From IMG/VR virus record IMGVR_UViG_3300045988_133767, positions 1-42,702 of that record: a stretch of 42,702 nt of DNA; one strand, 5' to 3'. Both the position numbers and the translations under genes were made by a program. Below, in pieces: positions 2,633 through 34,240 of this stretch. Source of the stretch: a virus. The notes under the pieces are model-generated. The model was not told where the DNA came from and did not search any database. It saw nothing but the letters and a program-made list of their open reading frames with translations. Positions within the stretch are counted from its first letter, which is position 1. Each line of letters starts with the position of its first letter.

Positions 2633-2967
2633 AACTCAAAGAGCTAATTGAGAATCTATATAAAAAGTTAGTGGGTGGTATGAAAATGCCACCTTCTTCT
2701 TTTTGGCATCTAACTATACATGAAGCTAATTTAGCACTAGAAGGGCATAAAAAAGAACAACAAGAGCAATATAACTTAAGTCTATGTTGCTTACAAAATG
2801 CTTTAGGAATGGCATTTGGAGGGGATAAATTCAAGCCTATCAATCCTTTTGAGAGCGCTAAGAGTAAAAAAGAAGCTCATAAAGTAAGCAAGAAACAAAG
2901 AGAAGAAAACTTGACATATATAAATAATTTATTTGAAAAATTTGGAGGTGGTGAAAATAGCAACTAA
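2297..2967 (+). CDS. tail assembly chaperone frameshift fusion (gpGT-like; -1 shift at 2623-2629)
   Basis: The downstream ORF (track 2671..2967) is in the -1 frame and is open back to 2620, with no independent RBS or ATG near 2620. This is the canonical G/GT arrangement upstream of a tape measure gene. Confidence 0.7.
2623..2629 (+). promoter_or_regulatory. -1 programmed ribosomal frameshift slippery heptamer G_GGA_AAG
   Basis: The zero-frame codons are GAG GGA AAG TAG. The -1 frame is open from 2620 to 2967. The X_XXY_YYZ pattern is satisfied, and the heptamer is the same as the lambda G/GT site. Confidence 0.8.
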
Positions 2968-3655
2968 AGTTTTAAATGTAAAGATCAATGCTGATATAGC
3001 TTCCTTCAAAACAAAAATGCAAGATGCTAGAAAATCAATCCAGGATATGTCAGAAAGCATTAAAAAGGCGACTGGCAATAGTAAATTAAGTGATGCATTA
3101 GGAGCTTCTGACTTTGGCAAAAAGCTAGAAGAAGTTAAAACTAAAGCATCTAATTTAGGACAAGTATTTAAAGCATTACCTGGACCAGCAAAAGCACTTG
3201 TTGTTGTAACTGCAGTATTAACAGTTACTAAAAAGTTATATGATGCTGGAAAACAGAGGTTTTTTGATGGACTGAATAACATAAAAGATACAGTCTCCCC
3301 TGTGTTTCAAGGTATGCTCACCTCAATAAATGCAGTTAAAGATGCTTTTAGTGAGTTAACAGGATTTGATTTTAATCTTTCAAGTCTTATAACAACTGGA
3401 GCAAACTTTGAATCACAAATGAAAACAGTTGCTACAATAGCTGGAAGTGTAGGAACTGAATTTGACCAGTTAGTTGCAAAAGCTAGAGAATTAGGAGCTG
3501 CAACTACATTTAGCGCTAGTCAAGTGGGCCAAGCAATGCAATATATGGCCATGGCTGGTTGGTCAACTCAAGAAATGCTTGACGGAGTACAATCAACATT
3601 AAATTTAGCAAAAATAGGGGCTACAGATTTAGGAACAGCAAGTGACATTTTGACT
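2933..3655 (+). CDS. tail tape measure protein, exon 1
   Basis: The coiled-coil N-terminus is followed by the TMP core motif ...ATTFSASQVGQAMQYMAMAGWSTQEMLDGVQSTLNLAKIGATDLGTASDILT. Coding-like sequence stops at ACT 3653-3655. The exact start is uncertain (TTG 2933, or GTG 2948/2951 next to GGAGG 2944-2948). Confidence 0.8.
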
Positions 3656-3943
3656 AAAATATTGGTCGGTTTAGTAGAAATACTATTCAAAAAATATTCG
3701 GTGAATTGCTGGAAGGCTAAGTTAATATTTGTAATTTATGGTATTAATATGCTAATCAGCAACCAAGCCATGGAAAGCCGTAAAAGTACATGGAAGGTTC
3801 AGAGACTAGGAGAATGAATAGGCAAATAATAATTTCTCCCACGAGCGCCGAACACCTTACTATTAAGTTAAAGGTGATGATATAGTCCCATCCTCTTATG
3901 AAAGTAAGAGTTCTAGGATAAAGAGCCTAGATATAAGATAATG
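3656..3943 (+). mobile_element. group I intron 1 in the tape measure gene (ORF-less, 288 nt)
   Basis: The 5' exon ends in U. Exon TTGACT (3650-3655) can pair with GGTCGG (3664-3669) to form P1 with a U.G pair at the splice site. There is a GAAA-tetraloop hairpin TAGTA-GAAA-TACTA. The P7 candidate is GACTA (3804-3808) with TAGTC (3883-3887), set in a GATATAGTCC context. The intron ends in G at 3943, and exon 2 resumes in frame. Confidence 0.8.
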
Positions 3944-4141
3944 GATGATTTAACTGCACTTGGCATGCAAGCAAATCAAGCTGGCGACTTTGCAGATAAA
4001 TTAGCTGCAACTATTACTAGAAGTAATACCGATGTTGTTTTATTCGGTGAATCTATGAAACAAACAGGCGCTATCGCTGGAGCATTAGGTGCTTCTATGA
4101 CAGATTTATCAACTAGTATCGGTCTAATGGCAAATGCGGGT
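3944..4141 (+). CDS. tail tape measure protein, exon 2
   Basis: Encodes DDLTALGMQANQAGDFADKLAATITRSNTDVVLFGESMKQTGAIAGALGASMTDLSTSIGLMANAG, which continues the TMP core motif exactly. There is no RBS before the apparent ATG at 3941. Confidence 0.8.
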
Positions 4142-4402
4142 AGACATACATGCTCGGTTACTAAGAAATTAGTAGCATAAAATACAGGGTTAAAATTGGA
4201 AAGCTAAGTCGAAAGATATGCTAATCAATTACCACTTCTATTAGGGATAATAGAAAGGTTTAGAGACTAGATAAAGTAAACTAGAACAGTTGAAATATCC
4301 ACGAAATCCTGCACCTAAGTTTAGAAAATATGGTGAAGAGATAGTCCGATACTCTTAGGAAACTAGGAGAGATAAGGATAAAGAGCCTTATTGTAACAAT
4401 TG
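4142..4402 (+). mobile_element. group I intron 2 in the tape measure gene (ORF-less, 261 nt)
   Basis: The 5' exon ends in U (GGT). Exon CGGGT (4137-4141) pairs with GCTCG (4152-4156), giving a U.G at the splice site. The P7 candidate is GACTA (4265-4269) with TAGTC (4342-4346). There is a GAAA-loop hairpin CTCTTAG-GAAA-CTAGGAG. The shared 3' block GGATAAAGAGCCT is present, and the intron ends in G at 4402. Confidence 0.75.
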
Positions 4403-4447
4403 ATTAAAGGTTCAAAGGCAGGTATGTCTTTGAAGAATATGTTGGCT
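4403..4447 (+). CDS. tail tape measure protein, exon 3 (45-nt micro-exon)
   Basis: Encodes IKGSKAGMSLKNMLA. This is the conserved G-IKGS-AG-LK motif of TP901-type tape measure proteins, in frame with both flanking exons. Confidence 0.75.
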
Positions 4448-5828
4448 AGAATATTGGTCGGTTTAGTAGAAATACTATTCAAAAAAGATTCGGCAATATC
4501 GGTGAAGGCTAAGTTTATTAATAATTGTAAATATGTTATAATATTTTTAGGGATAGTTAAGGAAGTCGCGAGCCTTAATGACAAGAAAGTTATCCGAGCT
4601 TTCTTCCCTTGTTAAATAAATCGGAAAATAAAAATACTGTCGGAGGTGTTTTTTATTATGAAAAAAATATGTATTTGTTGTGGTTTAGAAAAGGATATAA
4701 CAGAATTTTCTTTTAGAAAAGATACTAATAAGTATAGAAATCAATGTAAAGATTGCAGAAAGCAACAGAAAGCTAAATACGATAAAGAATATAATACCAA
4801 AAACAAAGAACGTAGAAAACAATATAGAAAAGAAAATGAAGCTAAAATAAAAGAACATAATAAACAATATTATGAAAAACATAAAGAAGTTTTAAAGAAA
4901 AATACTTCTGAATATTACCACAACAACAAAGCAAAAGTTTTAGAAAAATGCAAAGAATATAGAGAAAATAATAAAGAAAAAATAAAAATATCACAAAAGA
5001 AATATCGTGAAAGCAATAAAGTGTATTTAAATGAAAAGAGTAAACAGTATTACGAAGAACATAAAGAAGTTTTAAATGAAAGAAGAAAAAATTATCGTAT
5101 AGAAAATAATTTAGAAGTACGTAAATTAGATTACGAATATAGATTAAAAAATAAACACAGATATAAATACACTTGTAAGAATTGTGGCAAAAGCTTCACG
5201 GATTTTAAATTAGGAAGAAAGTTTTGCTCAACTGAATGTTTTAACGAGTATAATCAAGGCAGTAATAATCCTAATTACAATGTGAATTTAACAGATGAAG
5301 AAAGAGCTGAAAATAGAGATACAAAAGAATATAAAGTATGGAGAAAAAAGATTTTTGAAAAATATAATTATACTTGCCAATGTTGTGGGCAACAAGGCGG
5401 AGATATAGTTGCTCATCATTTAGATTCTTTTGATAAGAACAAAGAAAGTAGGCTTGACATAGAAAACGGAATAGTTCTTTGCAAGAAACATCATAAAGAA
5501 TTTCATCATATCTACGGATATGGTAACAATACAAAAGAACAATATGAACAATTTATAAATGATAAGGTATCTAAATAAGATGCCTTTTTATTTTGCAATT
5601 ATTAATAGATACGTTAATACCGAGATAACTTTATAGATTACGAAAGGCTATAAAGTATCGTAGAGCGTAGAGGGTGAATAAATATAATCCCTCCAAGAGT
5701 GTCGAACATCTTAACAAGTAAAGTTGAAGATGAAAATGTACGCCAAACTGAGTTGGAATTGACCAACTGATGAAAATGAAGGAAACTTCCAGAGGTGAAG
5801 ATAAAAAGCTTCACGATAATAACTATTG
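4448..5828 (+). mobile_element. group I intron 3 in the tape measure gene, carrying an HNH homing endonuclease ORF (1381 nt)
   Basis: The 5' exon ends in U (GCT). Exon TTGGCT (4442-4447) pairs with GGTCGG (4456-4461). The first 39 nt of the intron are near-identical to the start of intron 1. The P7 candidate is GCGTA (5665-5669) with TACGC (5739-5743). The intron ends in G at 5828. An ORF with its own RBS occupies 4658-5578. Confidence 0.8.
4658..5578 (+). CDS. intron-encoded HNH homing endonuclease
   Basis: RBS GGAGGTG is followed 9 nt later by ATG 4658. The N-terminus is Cys-containing, followed by Lys-rich repeats (KxYYExHKEVL). There is a zinc-ribbon motif CKNCGK...FCSTEC. The C-terminal HNH motif is CQCCG...VAHHLDSF...NGIVLCKKHHKEFHH. 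Confidence 0.85.
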   Translation: MKKICICCGLEKDITEFSFRKDTNKYRNQCKDCRKQQKAKYDKEYNTKNKERRKQYRKENEAKIKEHNKQYYEKHKEVLKKNTSEYYHNNKAKVLEKCKEYRENNKEKIKISQKKYRESNKVYLNEKSKQYYEEHKEVLNERRKNYRIENNLEVRKLDYEYRLKNKHRYKYTCKNCGKSFTDFKLGRKFCSTECFNEYNQGSNNPNYNVNLTDEERAENRDTKEYKVWRKKIFEKYNYTCQCCGQQGGDIVAHHLDSFDKNKESRLDIENGIVLCKKHHKEFHHIYGYGNNTKEQYEQFINDKVSK

Positions 5829-8483
5829 AATATGGCAAATCCAACAGACCAACAAGACAGAGCTTTACAAGAATTAGGAATGACTGCTGACAAAACAGGA
5901 AGTTATCTAAAAACAACAGCTGACGGATGTACAGATTTAGAAGCTACAGTAAAAGCATTAAGAGAAGGCACAGAAAATATGACAAGAAGTCAAAAAGCAG
6001 CTTTGATAGCTACTGTTGCTGGTAAAAATGCTTTACCAGGAGTTATGTCACTTGTTAATGCATCAGCAGAAGAATACAACAAGCTATCAGAAGCGATAGA
6101 CAATTCAACTTCTACAGTATCAATGTTTAATGAAAATATGAACATCTTAGGTTTAAAAGGCGAAGATGCTACAAAGAGAATAGAAGTCATGAAAGATGTA
6201 TTTTCTAATACTGAAACATCAGCAACAGCATTAGGATTGTCTAGTAAAGACTTAGGATATGCAATATCTTTACTTGGTGATGATTGTAAAGTTAGTTCTC
6301 AATCTGTAGAAGATTTACTCGATGTAGTAGAATCTATGGATAATGCTAGTGGTAAAGTTGATAAATTTTGGAGAAGTGTAGGAAATGCTAAAAACATAGA
6401 AATAGACGGAAAAGCAATAAATCAACTTATAGATTATAACGGAACTTTAAGTACTATAGATAATTCTATAGTTGGACTTAGTGATCATACAGTAGAATAT
6501 GCTAAAGCTCATAATGAAAACTATAAAAACACAAAAGAATATGTTAAATCACTTGTAAAAGAAGGAATGACAATAGACGATGCTAACAGTAAGCTTTCTA
6601 AATATGGAATAGAAGCTGAAAAAATATCATTATCTACATTATCAATGTCTCAAAAGACAGATTACCTAAGACAAGCATTTAAGGGCATGTCAGACGAACA
6701 AATAAAAGCTAAATTGCAAACTATAGGACTTGGAGATAGCTTTGATGAAGTTAACGAAATAGTTGATATGTCAGATGAAAAATATGCAACTTACAAGAAG
6801 AATCTTAAAGAAATTGAAGGATTATCAACTAGATTAGCTGACAGCATTGATGAAACAACAAAATCAACATTTTTAGCATTATCAAGTGCGATAGAAGATA
6901 GTTTAATAGGTGCATTTGAAAAAATGAAACCAGCGCTTATAAACGGCTCTCAAGCACTTACAGACTTTTTCTCAACTTGGAGAAACGGGGATAAAAACAC
7001 TTATACTTTTGATGGATTTGAAAAGGGATTAGCTGACTTAGAAACAAAAGTATCTAATGCAGCTAAAAATATACCTAATTTAATATCAAATGCAATAAGT
7101 GGTGCTAATAGATTTATAAGTGGTGGTTCTTTAGACAGTTTATTAAGCATGGGTAGTAGTATAGTTAAAAACATAGCTCAAGGCATAATAAACAACAAAG
7201 AAGGTTTATCAGCTGCAATAAGTAGTTTGATATCAAAAGTTTGTAGCTGGATTCAAGAAAATGGTCCTATGATCCAAGAAGCTGGCAAAGTTATCTTAGA
7301 AGCTATAGGAAACGGAATAAGAAATAATAGAGATCAAATAAATTCAGCATGCGGTATTATCTATGATGCAATGAACGATTGGTCGGCTGCAAATGCAGAA
7401 AATATGGGTATGCTTGGTGGTTCAGTAGCAGATAAATTTATATGGGGATTCTTAAAAGGCTTTACAATGGATAAATTTGCTGGTATAAAAGGATTTTTTG
7501 CTGGATTATTTAACAGCGACGGACAAGATGCTTATCAACAATGGGGTATTTCTAGTGGGCAAAATTACACCAATGGTATAAACTCAGGACTTGAACAAAG
7601 TAAATCTACAACAAATGCTACTGCAACAGAAATAGGCGATGGCATTTCCCAAAATATAATGAATAAGCTAGAAACTATGAATGCAAGTCAACTAAAAGAG
7701 TTAGAAAAAGAATTAAAATCCTTACAAACAACAACTCAAAATGTAGCTAATGGTATAGGTTCAAGCTTTGGAAAAATTAGAAATACAGTTAGAGAGAATT
7801 TAGTGGGTAGTGTTAACATAGGTAGAAATCAATTTGTCAACCTAGCTAATATTATAAGAAATCAATCTCAAAATGCTAGAAATAGCGCAACAAGAAGCTT
7901 TATATCACTTAGAAAAGTTATAAATACACAAATAACACAAGCTAGAACTGCTGTAACAAGTAAGATGATATCTATTGCTAATGTTGTAAGAACACAGTCA
8001 CAAAATGCACGTAACAATGCTACAAGAAGCTTTATATCACTTAGAAAAGTTATACAAACTCAAATGTCACAAGCTTATAGTTCTGTAAATAGTTATATGT
8101 CTAAAATAGCATCTGCTACAAATAGAACACTTAACACTAAAGTTAATGTTACTAGAACTGTTAATACTGTAAATCAGAGTGCTAGAACAGCTAATTTAAA
8201 AGCTGTAAACACAATGGCATATTCAAACTTAGCATATAGTGCTATAAGAGCTACAAATAATGCTGCTACTGCTAGTTTAGCTAGTACATCAACTTCAAGC
8301 TTTTCTAGTTCAACAGGTGTATCTAGTTCTTCTAATAGCACAGCAAAAGCTACTACAAGAGATATGAGGATAGTAATGCCAGTATATCTTGATAGCAAGG
8401 TCATAGGTGAATCTACTGCAGATATAGTAGATGATAAAATAAAAGTAAAAGCAAGAAGAGAAAACAGGAAGAGAGGTAGATAA
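5829..8483 (+). CDS. tail tape measure protein, exon 4
   Basis: Starts NMANPTDQQDRALQELGM, which completes the ...KNMLA|NMANPT motif. It then runs as a long helical protein with C-terminal tandem repeats. The apparent start at TTG 5826 has no RBS. Confidence 0.85.
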   Translation, partial: NMANPTDQQDRALQELGMTADKTGSYLKTTADGCTDLEATVKALREGTENMTRSQKAALIATVAGKNALPGVMSLVNASAEEYNKLSEAIDNSTSTVSMFNENMNILGLKGEDATKRIEVMKDVFSNTETSATALGLSSKDLGYAISLLGDDCKVSSQSVEDLLDVVESMDNASGKVDKFWRSVGNAKNIEIDGKAINQLIDYNGTLSTIDNSIVGLSDHTVEYAKAHNENYKNTKEYVKSLVKEGMTIDDANSKLSKYGIEAEKISLSTLSMSQKTDYLRQAFKGMSDEQIKAKLQTIGLGDSFDEVNEIVDMSDEKYATYKKNLKEIEGLSTRLADSIDETTKSTFLALSSAIEDSLIGAFEKMKPALINGSQALTDFFSTWRNGDKNTYTFDGFEKGLADLETKVSNAAKNIPNLISNAISGANRFISGGSLDSLLSMGSSIVKNIAQGIINNKEGLSAAISSLISKVCSWIQENGPMIQEAGKVILEAIGNGIRNNRDQINSACGIIYDAMNDWSAANAENMGMLGGSVADKFIWGFLKGFTMDKFAGIKGFFAGLFNSDGQDAYQQWGISSGQNYTNGINSGLEQSKSTTNATATEIGDGISQNIMNKLETMNASQLKELEKELKSLQTTTQNVANGIGSSFGKIRNTVRENLVGSVNIGRNQFVNLANIIRNQSQNARNSATRSFISLRKVINTQITQARTAVTSKMISIANVVRTQSQNARNNATRSFISLRKVIQTQMSQAYSSVNSYMSKIASATNRTLNTKVNVTRTVNTVNQSARTANLKAVNTMAYSNLAYSAIRATNNAATASLASTSTSSFSSSTGVSSSSNSTAKATTRDMRIVMPVYLDSKVIGESTADIVDDKIKVKARRENRKRGR

Positions 8484-10493
8484 ATGTATAAATTCGGTGA
8501 CATAGTATTAGACGATTTAGAAGGCTTTGGCATAAAAGAAATAGACATACCTTTACTACCTCCTTCTGAATCTGATTCTATTGAAACATGGAGCGATAAT
8601 GGAGATATATTTAGTGGAAGTAGAAAGAAGAAGAGAACAATAGATATTAAATTCTGTGTTGAATGTGATGATAAGGATACTTATGATACTACAGTAGATG
8701 CTATAGCAGATGCTTTTGATGTAGATACTCCACAAGCTTTTTACATAGAAGATGAAGAAAAATTTATTTACTGCATTCCAGAGGATGAAGTGGAGTTTGG
8801 AGATGTGGTAATTCGTGATAATAAATGTTATGGCGAGGGAAGTGTGTCCTTAGTGGCATACGACCCTTATTTTTATATAGAAGAAGCCAAAATATTTGAA
8901 GGCGATAAAAAGATTACTTATACAAATGAGGGCAAAAAGTCATGCCCTTGTATAATTAATGTAAATTTAGAGCAAGATGCTTGTTATTTACAAGTAAGTG
9001 ATAGTAATGGTAATGCTATTCTTCTTGGAACTTATCCAAGCCTTGTAAATAAATCAGTTAACGAAAAAGAAAATCAAATAGATGAAGTATGTGAAACAAA
9101 GACTAATTTCTCAAATGGGTCTTTTGTAGATGCAAATAGAGTTGTTACTGGTGGAGTAGATGTATGTGCTGTAAATGAAGGCGGATGGGCAATAGTAGCA
9201 AATGATTACGGCTCAGGAGATAAATGGCATGGACCTTCTATAAGAAGAAATCTTATTCCAGACATAATCGACTTTGAAGTGCAAGGCTACTTTTATTTTG
9301 ATTCAACAGGAAAATTGAAATACAACGAAAATGCAAGTACAAACACAACAACAACTACTAAATATAAAGTAACAGCTACATCAATAGCTTTAAAGGAAAA
9401 AAGACTTTCTAGTAGTAAAACGATAAAAACTATAAAAAAAGGTGTTTATTTGACTGCTAGTCAAGTTACTAATGGCTGGATAAAAACTACTTATAGTGAA
9501 AAAACTGGCTGGGTTAAAATATCTAAAGGTTTAAAGAAGATCACTACAAAAACAAGTAATTATTACACAAATCATACAGCATCATTAAGAAGTGGAGCAA
9601 GCAAGAAAACAAAGTTATTAGCTACAATACCGAATGGTACAGCGGTTAATTATTTAAATATCACAAGTGGGAAATGGAGCAAAGTAACCTATAACGGAAA
9701 AACAGGCTACGTTTGGAGTGAATATCTTACAAAAGGCTCGGATACAACGATAGAAACAGATGAAGATATAGTTGTGGCTGAAAATCAATTAGGCTTGTTA
9801 GAAATGTATGGATGCGATGTAAATGGTGTAAAATTATTCAAGTTTATGTTATGTGATGACCAAAAGTATTTTGAATCAAACTATCCAGTTGTACAAATAG
9901 GAAATAAAACTGTATTAGAAGATAAAGATTTTAAATTGCCAGAAGTAAAATTCACAACAACTACAGAAGGTAGTGGAGATAAGCTTACTATAAAGAAACA
10001 TTACCTTAATATGGGACAATATGGAGATTGGAACGAATTTAAAGGCCATTTTACTATAAAAAGGGAAGGTACAAAATGGAGTGTTGAAGTTGTTAAATAT
10101 AATTCCTCTGGTGAAATAGTTAAAACAATTAAGCCAGAAGATATAAGAGATAGCGATTTTCCAACAGGAAACCTAAATCATATAGATGTTTTCTTTGGCC
10201 AATATGGAGAAGAAAAAGCAGTTGATACAATGACACTTAATAGAATTATTGTAAATAAACTAAATGATACAACTCAAGAAGATACAAACTTATACATTTT
10301 TAAAGCTGGAGATGAAATAAGTATAGATACTTTAAATCAAAAGGTTTATAAAAATGGTGAGCTTTTTATGGATTATATAGATTATGGAAGTTACTTCTTT
10401 AACTTAGAACAAGGTGAAAATACAATAACAATAAATTCAGACAGTCCAATATCTTCTAGTAGTGTAATATTTAATGAAAGGTTTAATAGATAA
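8484..10493 (+). CDS. distal tail protein (Dit-like) with two inserted SH3b-like domains
   Basis: The gene lies directly after the TMP gene (TAAATG coupling). Internal repeats GWIKTTYSEKTGWVKISKG and GKWSKVTYNGKTGYVWSEYL are SH3b-like. Confidence 0.65.
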   Translation: MYKFGDIVLDDLEGFGIKEIDIPLLPPSESDSIETWSDNGDIFSGSRKKKRTIDIKFCVECDDKDTYDTTVDAIADAFDVDTPQAFYIEDEEKFIYCIPEDEVEFGDVVIRDNKCYGEGSVSLVAYDPYFYIEEAKIFEGDKKITYTNEGKKSCPCIINVNLEQDACYLQVSDSNGNAILLGTYPSLVNKSVNEKENQIDEVCETKTNFSNGSFVDANRVVTGGVDVCAVNEGGWAIVANDYGSGDKWHGPSIRRNLIPDIIDFEVQGYFYFDSTGKLKYNENASTNTTTTTKYKVTATSIALKEKRLSSSKTIKTIKKGVYLTASQVTNGWIKTTYSEKTGWVKISKGLKKITTKTSNYYTNHTASLRSGASKKTKLLATIPNGTAVNYLNITSGKWSKVTYNGKTGYVWSEYLTKGSDTTIETDEDIVVAENQLGLLEMYGCDVNGVKLFKFMLCDDQKYFESNYPVVQIGNKTVLEDKDFKLPEVKFTTTTEGSGDKLTIKKHYLNMGQYGDWNEFKGHFTIKREGTKWSVEVVKYNSSGEIVKTIKPEDIRDSDFPTGNLNHIDVFFGQYGEEKAVDTMTLNRIIVNKLNDTTQEDTNLYIFKAGDEISIDTLNQKVYKNGELFMDYIDYGSYFFNLEQGENTITINSDSPISSSSVIFNERFNR

Positions 10494-20449: not shown

Positions 20450-20546
20450 ATATAAATACTTTATAAGGTGACTGTAAGGTGCTTAGGAAGTGGATAGGAA
20501 GGTCGATTTTTTAAGCATCTTTTATTTTCAGAAAGGATTTGATAAT

Positions 20547-21422
20547 ATGAGTAAAAAATATTTAGTAGCTATAGATGCAGGACATGGTATGCATACAGAA
20601 GGTAAACAATCAGTTCCAATGTCAAAAAATTTATACATAGATGGTGAATTAGTAAGAGCAAAAGGAAAGATCATCAAAGAAAATGAATGGAACAGAGGTG
20701 TAAGTGAATATCTAGCTGCTGCACTAAAAAGATGTGGAATAGATACAATGTTTACTGCAGATATGACAGGTAAAACAGATATTGCCTTGTCTACTAGAGC
20801 AAGTAAAGCTAATAAAGCTAAAGCAGATATATTAATTTCAAATCATTATAATGCAATAGGAAGCTGTGCTAAATGGCAAACTCGAGTTAAAGGGTTATTA
20901 GTATTAAGAACTAAAAATTGTTCTGAAAAATCTATAAAATTAGGAAAATTAGCAGTTAAGCATCTTAAAAAAGACATAGACTATGAATATAGTTATGGTT
21001 TAATGCGCGATGTAGATATGAGTGGATTTACATTAGCTATACTTAGACAAACAACAATGCCAGCAATATTAATCGAGTATGGTTTTATGGATTATTGGAA
21101 TGAAGCAAAACTTATGCTTGATAAAAAACATCAAGAAAAATGTGCTGAAGCAGTTTGTAAGTCAGTATGTGAATATTTCGGAGTAACTTATATAGCAGAA
21201 AAGCAAGAAGCTACTAAAACTAAGTATGTTAGAATATTACAAGATATAAACATACATAGCAAACCAGATTTTGATGCTGCTAATGTAATAGGTAAAGTTA
21301 CTGCTGGTGGAGCTTATACTGTAGTAGAAACTATAAAAAGAACTGGAACAGATATGTATAAATTAAAATCAGGAGTTTATATAACAGCTTCACCAAAATA
21401 TGTAGAAGTATTTGAAAAATAA
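20547..21422 (+). CDS. endolysin, N-acetylmuramoyl-L-alanine amidase (Amidase_3) with a C-terminal SH3-like wall-binding domain
   Basis: The motifs AIDAGHG, ISNHYNA and ILIEYGFMD are present. The likely start is ATG 20547 (MSKKYLVAIDAGHG); the ORF track starts upstream at 20490. Confidence 0.85.
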   Translation: MSKKYLVAIDAGHGMHTEGKQSVPMSKNLYIDGELVRAKGKIIKENEWNRGVSEYLAAALKRCGIDTMFTADMTGKTDIALSTRASKANKAKADILISNHYNAIGSCAKWQTRVKGLLVLRTKNCSEKSIKLGKLAVKHLKKDIDYEYSYGLMRDVDMSGFTLAILRQTTMPAILIEYGFMDYWNEAKLMLDKKHQEKCAEAVCKSVCEYFGVTYIAEKQEATKTKYVRILQDINIHSKPDFDAANVIGKVTAGGAYTVVETIKRTGTDMYKLKSGVYITASPKYVEVFEK

Positions 21423-32790: not shown

Positions 32791-32803
32791 AAGGGTGAAT
32801 AAA

Positions 32804-34240
32804 ATGGAATTTGAATGTGGTAGCATGACATCATTTGGCTGTGAACGTATGGACGGAGTAAAAGAATTAATCATGGCAGAGATAGAAGAAGCGATAGAAG
32901 AGATAAAAGAACAGGATGAAGCAAGAAGACCAGAATTAATAGCAATGATTCAACAAGAGAAAATGTGTACAAATGCTTGTTGCTATGGATGTGAAAAATC
33001 TAATTTATGTGTTTATACTTGCAATAGAGTAGATTGGCCAGATGAAGAAAGAAAAATTAATTATAAAGATGAAGAATTGAGACAAGAAAAACTTTTAGGC
33101 ATCAAATGTTACAACTGTGCAAAAGAAATCAATCAAGAAGGACATAAAGCAAATATTCGAAGTGATGAAGCTGATTGTGTATGGTTATGTGATGATTGCT
33201 TTAAAAAAGCATGTGGAGACCAAAGTAAATTTGAAGATCTAGAAAGAGAAAGATTAAAATACGAATTTAAACAAGAAGAAATAAAACAAGTTGATTATGA
33301 ACAACTGACATTTTTTTTAGGAGGTGACAACATGTTACAGATATTAGAGCTATTCGGAGGAATTGGAAGCCCTAGAGTAGCACTTAGAAATTTAGGAGTA
33401 CCAGTAAAAGCAATAGATTACATAGAAATAGATGAAAAAGCTGTTAGAAGCTATAATGAGATATTCAGAAATGAATTAGAATATAAAACTCAAGATGTAA
33501 GAGGCTGGAATCTTAAACCAGATATACTGATTCATGGTTCACCTTGTCAGAGTTTTAGCATTGCAGGTAAACAACAAGGAGCAGATGAAGGAAGCGGAAC
33601 AGAATCAAGTTTAATGTGGGAAACCATTAATATAATAAAACAAATGGGAATATGGAAGCCTAGAGTAGTTATTTGGGAAAATGTAAAAAATGTTTTATCA
33701 AAGCATATGATAAAAAACTTTAATCGATATTTGGAAGAAATGCAAAAACTAGGTTATACAAATTCATTTGAAATATTAAATGCTATGGATTTTGGATTAC
33801 CTCAAAATAGAGATAGAGTGTTTACTATAAGTTGTTTAGATGGAACATATTTTAATTTCATGGAACTACAAAGAAAACAATTAAGACCACTATCAGACTT
33901 TTTAGAAGATGAAGTTAGTGAAGAGTATACAGTAACTCAACCAAGCATTTTAAGAGGTATAGGTAAAGCAGGCACGATAAAAAGAACAACTGTTATAAAA
34001 GATTTTGCCTATACCATTACTGAAAGACAAGATAGATGTCCAGCACAAGTTATTGATCTAGGAAATAATAAGTACAGATTTCTTACAGATAGAGAGTGCT
34101 GGAGATTACAAGGCTATTCTGATGAAGATTATAATAACGCAGCTAAAGTGAATAGCAAAAGAGCATTATATAAACAAGCTGGAAATAGCATACCAACTAC
34201 AATATTTGAAGCTATTTTTAAAGTACTATTGGATTTATAA
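32804..34240 (+). CDS. DNA (cytosine-5)-methyltransferase fused in frame to an N-terminal Cys-rich domain
   Basis: The MTase motifs are ELFGGIGS (I), PCQSFS (IV), ENV (VI), QNRDR (VIII) and GNS (X). An internal RBS AGGAGGTG followed by ATG 33332 marks the start of the MTase core. The upstream 176 codons are Cys-rich. Confidence 0.85.
   Translation: MEFECGSMTSFGCERMDGVKELIMAEIEEAIEEIKEQDEARRPELIAMIQQEKMCTNACCYGCEKSNLCVYTCNRVDWPDEERKINYKDEELRQEKLLGIKCYNCAKEINQEGHKANIRSDEADCVWLCDDCFKKACGDQSKFEDLERERLKYEFKQEEIKQVDYEQLTFFLGGDNMLQILELFGGIGSPRVALRNLGVPVKAIDYIEIDEKAVRSYNEIFRNELEYKTQDVRGWNLKPDILIHGSPCQSFSIAGKQQGADEGSGTESSLMWETINIIKQMGIWKPRVVIWENVKNVLSKHMIKNFNRYLEEMQKLGYTNSFEILNAMDFGLPQNRDRVFTISCLDGTYFNFMELQRKQLRPLSDFLEDEVSEEYTVTQPSILRGIGKAGTIKRTTVIKDFAYTITERQDRCPAQVIDLGNNKYRFLTDRECWRLQGYSDEDYNNAAKVNSKRALYKQAGNSIPTTIFEAIFKVLLDL

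Follow-up and report, generated by a model that had tools for sequence, protein, structure and literature searches.

Three apparent group I introns in the conserved core of a phage tape measure gene

The IMG/VR virus record IMGVR_UViG_3300045988_133767, whose 42,702 nucleotides (nt) were analysed in full and are called the window here, contains a tape measure protein (TMP) gene with a reading frame broken at three places. We believe, with a probability of roughly 0.9, that these interruptions are three group I introns lying within 81 codons of the TP901-type core of the gene, and that they would be removed by splicing and spread by homing.

The open reading frame (ORF) list of the window places the breaks at the coordinates given in a preliminary description of this DNA, and exact joining of the four exons (Table 1) returned the product announced there, 3621 nt encoding 1206 amino acids (aa). 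When the joined protein was compared with the TP901-type model, as had been proposed, PF10145 (PhageMin_Tail) matched it in one stretch, at residues 183-387 (profile positions 3-201 of 201, E=8.5e-42). The three junctions fall after residues 241, 307 and 322, all inside this match, and read ASDILTDDLTALGM, ANAGIKGSK and NMLANMANPTDQQ in the joined protein. Together with the length of 1206 aa, a tail tube gene upstream (1847-2287) and a Dit gene downstream (8484-10493), the PF10145 core assigns the protein to the TP901 family. The insertion sites are spread over 792 nt of DNA, in agreement with the roughly 800 nt estimated beforehand, and over merely 81 codons of the spliced messenger. Every interruption follows an exon-terminal T and has G as its last base, and each contains in-frame stops (TGA at 3815-3817 in intron 1; ends of the read-through ORF at 4180 and 4615 in the other two), so that these earlier claims also held for all three.

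The stops had been cited against inteins. An intein would be compatible with the lengths of introns 1 and 2 (288 and 261 nt, both multiples of three), but not with that of intron 3 (1381 nt), and neither a Hint nor an intein domain was found in Pfam and PHROG searches, in which the sole protein match was HNH. For introns 1 and 2 it is only the stops and the RNA-model evidence given below that exclude inteins. As for an artefact of metagenome assembly, the same architecture recurs in independent contigs that differ in sample and source, namely L002 (ENA), L003 (Logan), L019 (IMG/VR) and L105 (RefSeq; L numbers denote DNA loci, P numbers protein relatives, and L001 and L105 are MW478292 and NZ_CP102306, respectively). 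The stops, the domain searches and this recurrence refute both explanations, whose remaining chance could hardly be smaller.

Table 1. Features of the TMP locus, in window coordinates (a slash marks a junction).
Feature	Position	Strand	Remarks
TMP exon 1	2933..3655	+	Ends GAC ATT TTG ACT (DILT)
Site 0 (s0), fourth insertion site	3550..3551	+	QYMA/MAGW; empty in the window
Intron 1	3656..3943	+	Predicted group I, 288 nt, without ORF, terminal G
TMP exon 2	3944..4141	+	66 codons, DDLTALGM...GLMANAG
Intron 2	4142..4402	+	Predicted group I, 261 nt, without ORF
TMP exon 3	4403..4447	+	45-nt mini-exon (IKGSKAGMSLKNMLA)
Intron 3	4448..5828	+	Predicted group I, 1381 nt, apparently chimeric
Endonuclease cassette	4539..5616	+	1078 nt, at the boundary of the P5 3' strand and J5/4, flanked by a GTTA repeat
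HNH homing endonuclease gene (putative)	4658..5578	+	Likely start ATG 4658
Terminator-like hairpin	5564..5586	+	AAGGTATCT...AGATGCCTT then TTTATTTT; overlaps the HNH stop codon
TMP exon 4	5829..8483	+	884 codons and stop; first residues NMANPTDQQ

Introns 1 and 2 are recognised by the Rfam group I model RF00028, with which the preliminary description had proposed to scan the region. They were the sole Rfam matches in the 42.7-kb window, over which the E-values were calculated, and both lie above the gathering threshold of 50 bits: intron 1 at 3646-3910 (105.9 bits, E=1.2e-26) and intron 2 at 4116-4369 (53.9 bits, E=4.7e-11). The second was also matched in L003 by a narrower search, having been missed by the speed filters in a joint scan of L001-L003. 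As had been claimed, a guide sequence within each intron can pair with the upstream exon and leave a U.G pair at the splice site. The P1 helix is formed by UUGACU/AA with UUGGUCGG in intron 1, by CGGGU/A with UGCUCG in intron 2, and by UUGGCU/AG with UUGGUCGG in intron 3, with canonical pairs in all three. In intron 1 all helices are canonical, P2 and P9 carry GAAA loops, P7 pairs G(A)GACUA with UAGUCC, and the energy fold gives P1-P6, P7.1, P8, P9 and P9.1. Each intron has one hairpin between the 5' strand of P7 and the 3' strand of P3 (GGAGAA with UUCUCC, GAUA with UAUC, and GAGGG with CCCUC, located by hand), the position of the extra P7.1/P7.2 hairpins of subgroup IA. The core motifs quoted earlier for every interruption, AGAGACTAG...GATATAGTCC, proved exact in intron 1 only; intron 2 has GAGATAGTCC, and intron 3 has AGAGCGTAG...AATGTACGCC in their place. 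The single GATATAGT in intron 3 falls in the HNH ORF and is coincidental.

The P5 strands of introns 1 (3716-3721 and 3750-3754) and 2 (4202-4207 and 4218-4222) read GCUAAG...UAUGC, and the second strand in intron 3 (4508-4513 and 4532-4536) reads UAUGU, resembling the 11-nt GAAA-tetraloop receptor (CCUAAG...UAUGG). GAAA loops cap P2 and P9 in introns 1 and 2, and P2 and a small P9a hairpin in intron 3. Together, these motifs and loops suggest tertiary clamps of the kind usual in the compact group I introns of phages.

Several points weigh against the reading of three splicing introns. The Rfam check did not succeed for intron 3, which in the window gave no match to RF00028 even at E<=10. ORF-less copies of 295-303 nt, found at the same site in L003 (9210-9512), L100 and L103, were matched over their full length at sub-threshold scores (20.2, 21.6 and 24.2 bits, respectively), and intron 3 is not a group I member by Rfam's own criterion. 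Its endonuclease cassette sits at the P5/J5-4 junction instead of a terminal loop, and it holds a terminator-like hairpin near its end; either of these could lower the yield of spliced full-length messenger. The frame of exon 1 stays open over the first 54 codons of intron 1, a stretch covering P1-P7, until the TGA at 3815-3817 (over 12 codons in intron 2), and ribosomes translating behind the polymerase could unfold the core of intron 1 and disturb its folding. Lastly, splicing itself is read from the sequence, and the activity and target of the endonuclease are predicted from homology and co-conversion.

Of these points, the missing Rfam match in the window, the 20-24 bits of the ORF-less copies against a threshold of 50, and the unusual place of the cassette, together with the terminator-like hairpin that the intron contains, would favour an alternative in which introns 1 and 2 splice and intron 3 is decayed or does not splice. 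In that case exon 3 would be the last before a break in the gene, as in a defective prophage, or a truncated TMP would result. We consider this improbable, because at least two divergent TMP lineages retain intron 3 at this site, some copies having the ORF and others lacking it, with exons that are intact and in frame, and exon 4 of the window is a clean ORF of 885 codons. Moreover, compensatory changes preserve P3, P4, P6, P7, P7.1 and P8 across intron 3, its L103 variant and an intron that interrupts the terminase gene of Clostridium perfringens phage vB_CpeS-1181.

We attribute the failure of the Rfam model in the window to the 1078-nt cassette, which breaks it, and since intron 3 remains below the RF00028 threshold, its membership rests on structural criteria. 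Helices were placed by hand in seven sequences: introns 1 to 3, the ORF-less intron 3, the L103 variant, an intron from a fourth insertion site (site 0, see below) and the vB_CpeS-1181 terminase intron. In all seven, P1, P2, P3, P4, P5, P6/6a, P7 (with its bulged nucleotide), P7.1, P8, P9 and P9.1 occur in the same order, and the pairs are canonical throughout except for one mismatch in the P9a hairpin of the L103 variant. When six helices were held in fixed register over eight intron types, 272 of 272 pairs were canonical within introns, against 59% with the 3' strand taken from another intron, although the choice of helices by hand biases the within-intron count upward. The informative part of this analysis is instead the compensatory double changes, found at 25 of the 34 helix positions; in intron 3 they affect P3, P4 and P7, among others. 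P7, for instance, pairs G(A)GACUA with UAGUCC in introns 1 and 2, G(A)GCGUA with UACGCC in intron 3, and A(C)GCGUA with UACGCU in the L103 variant and the terminase intron. Hand-registered helices were used because P6-P7 of the intron 3 family came out of register when all intron types were aligned globally with MAFFT. Independently of these helices, folding the ORF-less intron 3 to minimum energy (z=-2.7) gives P1, P2, the long-range P3, P4, P5, P6, P7.1, P8 and the P9 hairpins in the same layout as the fold of intron 1, which again speaks against decay; P7 is missing from the energy folds because it is pseudoknotted. As far as comparison and predicted folds can tell, we conclude that intron 3 possesses a complete group I core.

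Naturally occurring alleles provide a separate view of the junctions. The preliminary description had proposed to look at intact homologues, and in these the junction residues are contiguous. Intron 1 is missing in P0002, P0003 and L003, in which ASDILT/DDLTALGM is uninterrupted; P0002 and P0003 read ASDILTDDLTALGM, and P0001 reads ANAGIKGSKAGMSLKNMLSNMSHPTDQQ. Introns 2 and 3 are missing in P0001, L002, L020 and many others, which read ANAG/IKGSKAGMSLKNMLS/NMSHPTDQQ. Four loci (L021, L022, L031 and L032) have zero introns, and their TMP aligns as a single segment. At the nucleotide level, intron 1 is precisely absent from L003, L021, L022, L028 and L030-L033, and intron 2 from 13 related alleles. 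The base at position -1, a wobble position, is always T in occupied alleles, whose introns all end in G, and A, C, G or T in empty ones (codons including ACA, ACC, ACG, TCG and TCA). At the level of sequence, such alleles prove each predicted junction to the nucleotide. Further afield, 83 more distant TMP loci from wider searches showed no interruption in this region, and the TMP region was uninterrupted in the best 60 of 938 GenBank phage matches.

The same alleles bear on whether the TMP could truly be split, with four polypeptides assembling non-covalently and the interruptions being insertions of free-standing mobile endonucleases. Phage genes split by free-standing endonuclease genes are known, and in related records the annotation gives two 'tape measure' or 'terminase' coding sequences (CDSs). 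However, exon 3 has only 15 codons and no ribosome-binding site, exons 2 and 4 begin exactly where intact homologues run on without a gap, with their apparent start codons in intron sequence, and of the three spacers two are ribozyme-like RNAs that lack an ORF and score above the Rfam threshold. We find a split protein highly improbable.

Under the reading of three group I introns, intron 3 would be the mobile partner, owing to its endonuclease cassette. This cassette is precisely missing from the 303-nt ORF-less alleles (L003 and L100). Its gene probably starts at ATG 4658, with GGAGG at 4642-4646 lying 11 nt before it; the mechanical ORF, taken from GTG 4646, has 310 aa. The predicted protein combines N-terminal CxxC zinc-ribbon-like motifs, a lysine-rich middle and a C-terminal HNH domain. 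It matched PF13391 at the margin (E=2.9e-4, 21.1 bits against a cut-off of 21) and the HNH families phrog_1271 (9.2e-13), phrog_119 (1.1e-12) and phrog_144 (3.8e-12), and over its C-terminal 157 aa it shares 44% identity with the HNH protein of a long-form intron at site 1. The hairpin that overlaps its stop codon, and so lies within the TMP transcription unit, could attenuate read-through into exon 4 or be one of the cassette's own expression signals.

Upstream of the endonuclease start, at about 4550-4657, lies an element of about 100 nt (AGGGATAG.TTAGGAAGTCGCGAGCC...GAAAGT.ATCCGAGCTTTCTTCCCTT...TCGGAGGTG) that is common to intron 3 and the vB_CpeS-1181 terminase intron (L001, about 1585-1696), despite their differing endonuclease ORFs. 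Its role may be that of a structured peripheral RNA domain, or else it may control translation within the cassette. Another ORF of 310 aa, at 20490-21422, was considered as a second copy of the intron endonuclease on account of its equal length; it is the Amidase_3 endolysin.

Exon 3, enclosed between introns 2 and 3, gives the clearest trace of movement. Compared with the window, it is identical at 45 of 45 positions in L003 and L019, which carry both introns and belong to the same lineage (exon 2, 188-194 of 198), and at 42 of 45 in L100 and L103, which carry both introns in a divergent lineage whose exon 2 has only 141 of 198 positions in common (71%). In intron-less alleles the figure falls to 29-38 of 45, despite an exon 2 identity of up to 192 of 198. 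As read from these alleles, the pattern is a co-conversion tract, a signature of homing. Introns 2 and 3 also co-occur in every case among the sampled alleles of these two TMP lineages. It would be most economical to suppose that the HNH endonuclease of intron 3 drives the movement of intron 2, exon 3 and intron 3 as a single unit.

The introns also appear related to one another in a modular way. Within the first 80 or so alignment columns (P1', P2, P3 and P4/P5), intron 3 is identical to intron 1 at 64 of 77 positions (about 83%), against about 37% in the remainder, whereas in its 3' part (P6-P9) it shares about 81% identity with the vB_CpeS-1181 terminase intron (83% in a direct megablast match). 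Because its 5' third matches intron 1 and its 3' two-thirds match an intron of a terminase gene, intron 3 looks like a recombinant. Introns 1 and 3 have the same guide sequence, GGUCGG, for the exon targets UUGACU and UUGGCU. Intron 2 and the site-0 intron, in turn, have a nearly identical P4-P7 core and differ in P1, P2, P3 and P8 with compensatory changes.

Site 0 is empty in the window and occupied in relatives, including P0070 and P0073, by introns of 262-264 nt or 1027-1837 nt, and by one of 384 nt in L103. The long forms encode HNH or LAGLIDADG endonucleases, or one of each: L028 has LAGLIDADG only, L030 and L033 have HNH only, and the 1837-nt intron of L023 (7601-9437) has HNH (245 aa) and LAGLIDADG (253 aa) in tandem. 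The intron of L103 (reverse complement, about 530-660) retains only about the first 16 and the last 12 LAGLIDADG codons, in its P9 loop, and this remnant is an internal deletion of an ORF still complete in L023 and L028. The remnant and the precise ORF-less deletions, bordered by a GTTA repeat, are in keeping with the gain-decay-loss cycle known for homing elements. L100 and L103, metagenomic phages of the second, divergent TMP lineage, have introns at all four sites; RF00028 scores of the four introns in L103 are 50.5, 99.8, 55.5 and 24.2 bits.

Taken together, these relationships allow a broader proposal, to which we give somewhat less than even odds. The TMP core would be a four-site hot-spot of modular introns, in which a chimeric intron 3, with the guide, P2 and P3 of intron 1 and the catalytic back end of a terminase intron, was retargeted to a second TTGRCT site, and in which intron 2 hitch-hikes on HNH-driven co-conversion. 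If true, the locus would be a tractable natural system for the acquisition of new homing sites and for the escape of ORF-less introns from the gain-decay-loss cycle.

Taking standard group I chemistry as a guide, we propose that each intron would fold in the late transcript as a P1-P9 ribozyme. An external guanosine would attack the phosphate 3' of the exon-terminal U, which forms the U.G wobble with the guide sequence in P1, and the intron-terminal G would then dock in the P7 site, leading to exon ligation. Three such events would turn the four exons into one frame of 1206 aa. In co-infections or phage-prophage encounters, the HNH endonuclease of intron 3 would presumably nick or cut intron-less TMP alleles, and repair would copy the intron and flanking exon sequence into the cut allele. 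The ORF-less intron 2, 45 nt upstream, most probably moves together with intron 3, the two and exon 3 forming a composite unit. Intron 1 also lacks an ORF in the window; long forms elsewhere bear a related HNH gene.

Landthaler and Shub are said to have described in 1999 three self-splicing group I introns, separated by short exons, in orf142 of Staphylococcus phage Twort. Those introns were reportedly shown to splice, and their sequences and host gene differ from those of the window. Introns in TMP genes are themselves on record. In the Bacillus cereus group, the group I introns TMP-IVS1, IVS2 and IVS3 occupy three TMP sites in lambdaBa01-like and other prophages, and that publication describes re-targeting between sites with re-adapted P1 guides as well as different introns at one site (Tourasse & Kolsto 2008, PMC2504315). 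These introns resemble those of the window in residing at three sites of a TP901-type TMP gene of temperate Firmicutes siphoviruses, in varying in presence between strains, and in mostly lacking an intact endonuclease gene. They are of subgroup IA type, and the window introns have one hairpin each at the P7.1/P7.2 position. The Bacillus pattern is also echoed in the guide common to introns 1 and 3 and in the core common to intron 2 and the site-0 intron. Differences are that the Bacillus TMP genes have at most two introns each as that publication describes them, against three in the window and four in L100 and L103, and that the host lineage is Bacillus there and Clostridia-like here. We found no sequence relationship between the Bacillus TMP introns and those of the window, and in the KBAB4 plasmid match (NC_010182) the TMP is uninterrupted in this region.

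Vibrio phage ICP1 has a TMP intron bearing an HNH gene, for which splicing was demonstrated by RNA sequencing and reverse-transcription PCR, and the same study describes TMP as a frequently interrupted gene (Barth et al. 2023, PMC10448857). ICP1 is like the window in having an HNH gene in a TMP intron, and its endonuclease content varies between isolates. It differs in being a Gram-negative myovirus with one interruption, the window having three predicted introns.

Two C. perfringens elements come closer to individual introns. The intron of phage vB_CpeS-1181 (MW478292) is about 81-83% identical to intron 3 over its 3' two-thirds (P6-P9), with compensatory changes in P3, P6, P7 and P8. In both, the endonuclease ORF is preceded by the common element of about 100 nt and a GGAGGTG ribosome-binding site. 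It lies in the terminase large-subunit gene and has other P1, P2 and P5 helices and another endonuclease (259 aa, phrog_559/9084). In C. perfringens JXNC-3B, the TMP of plasmid unnamed4 (NZ_CP102306), a plasmid-prophage, is about 51% identical to that of the window and has one intron, 285 nt long and exactly at site 2 (GLMANSG/IKASQAG; RF00028, 65.8 bits). This intron has the guide UGCUCG and the P2 of intron 2, and differs from it in P3, P4, P6 and P8. Both introns (MW478292 1505-2710 in the terminase gene, NZ_CP102306 5457-5741 in the TMP gene) are unannotated, and each host gene is given as two CDSs.

The window looks like a complete, circularly permuted genome of a temperate siphovirus. 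Its genes include tail tube, Dit, Tal, an Amidase_3 endolysin, a tyrosine integrase, a C5 methyltransferase, a Terminase_3 large subunit and an SPP1-type portal, and it has a near-twin in the IMG/VR contig 3300045988_108533. Megablast of most of the window from 2933 on against GenBank phages and PLSDB plasmids revealed no close relative; matches were limited to the 3' part of intron 3 (the C. perfringens phage) and a fragment of the methyltransferase gene (Clostridium plasmids). In a scan of representative genomes, the only TMP relatives were at most 53% identical and came from assorted Clostridia and Negativicutes. The links to C. perfringens elements and the low G+C tentatively suggest a Clostridium-like Firmicute as host. 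The C5 cytosine DNA methyltransferase gene (32795-34240) is 78% identical to a C. botulinum plasmid and, over 74 nt, 83% identical to a C. perfringens plasmid; elsewhere in the non-structural half, no part resembles public records at the nucleotide level.

The start codon of TMP is ambiguous between TTG 2933 and GTG 2948 or 2951, and in the relative P0043 the gene caller places the start at the GVKIATKV position. GGAGGTG abuts GTG 2951, and TTG 2933 has no clear ribosome-binding site upstream. Near the start lie a terminator-like hairpin (2673-2694) and an ORF at 2671-2967, probably a tail-chaperone frameshift product, that overlaps it.

As TMP introns have already been published, this locus is a further, unusually dense case of a described phenomenon and reveals no new kind of element. 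The interpretation in the preliminary description is supported, none of the computational checks proposed there having refuted it, whereas its impression of novelty was too high. What is new here is modest: three apparent introns in one TMP gene (four in relatives), an intron that looks chimeric and a probable composite co-conversion cassette. A practical consequence concerns annotation, since gene callers split such TMP and terminase genes into 'hypothetical' or partial CDSs in NZ_CP102306, in MW478292 and in every IMG/VR relative examined; recognising the introns restores one essential tail-length gene. Beyond that, a single phage population displays all stages of the intron and endonuclease life cycle, from empty sites through ORF-less introns and introns with HNH, LAGLIDADG or both to a decayed remnant, and the same locus combines zero to four introns per gene with exon co-conversion tracts and an intron of seemingly chimeric make-up. 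For this reason it might be used as a model of how homing sites are acquired and of the limits of ribozyme packing in an essential late gene.

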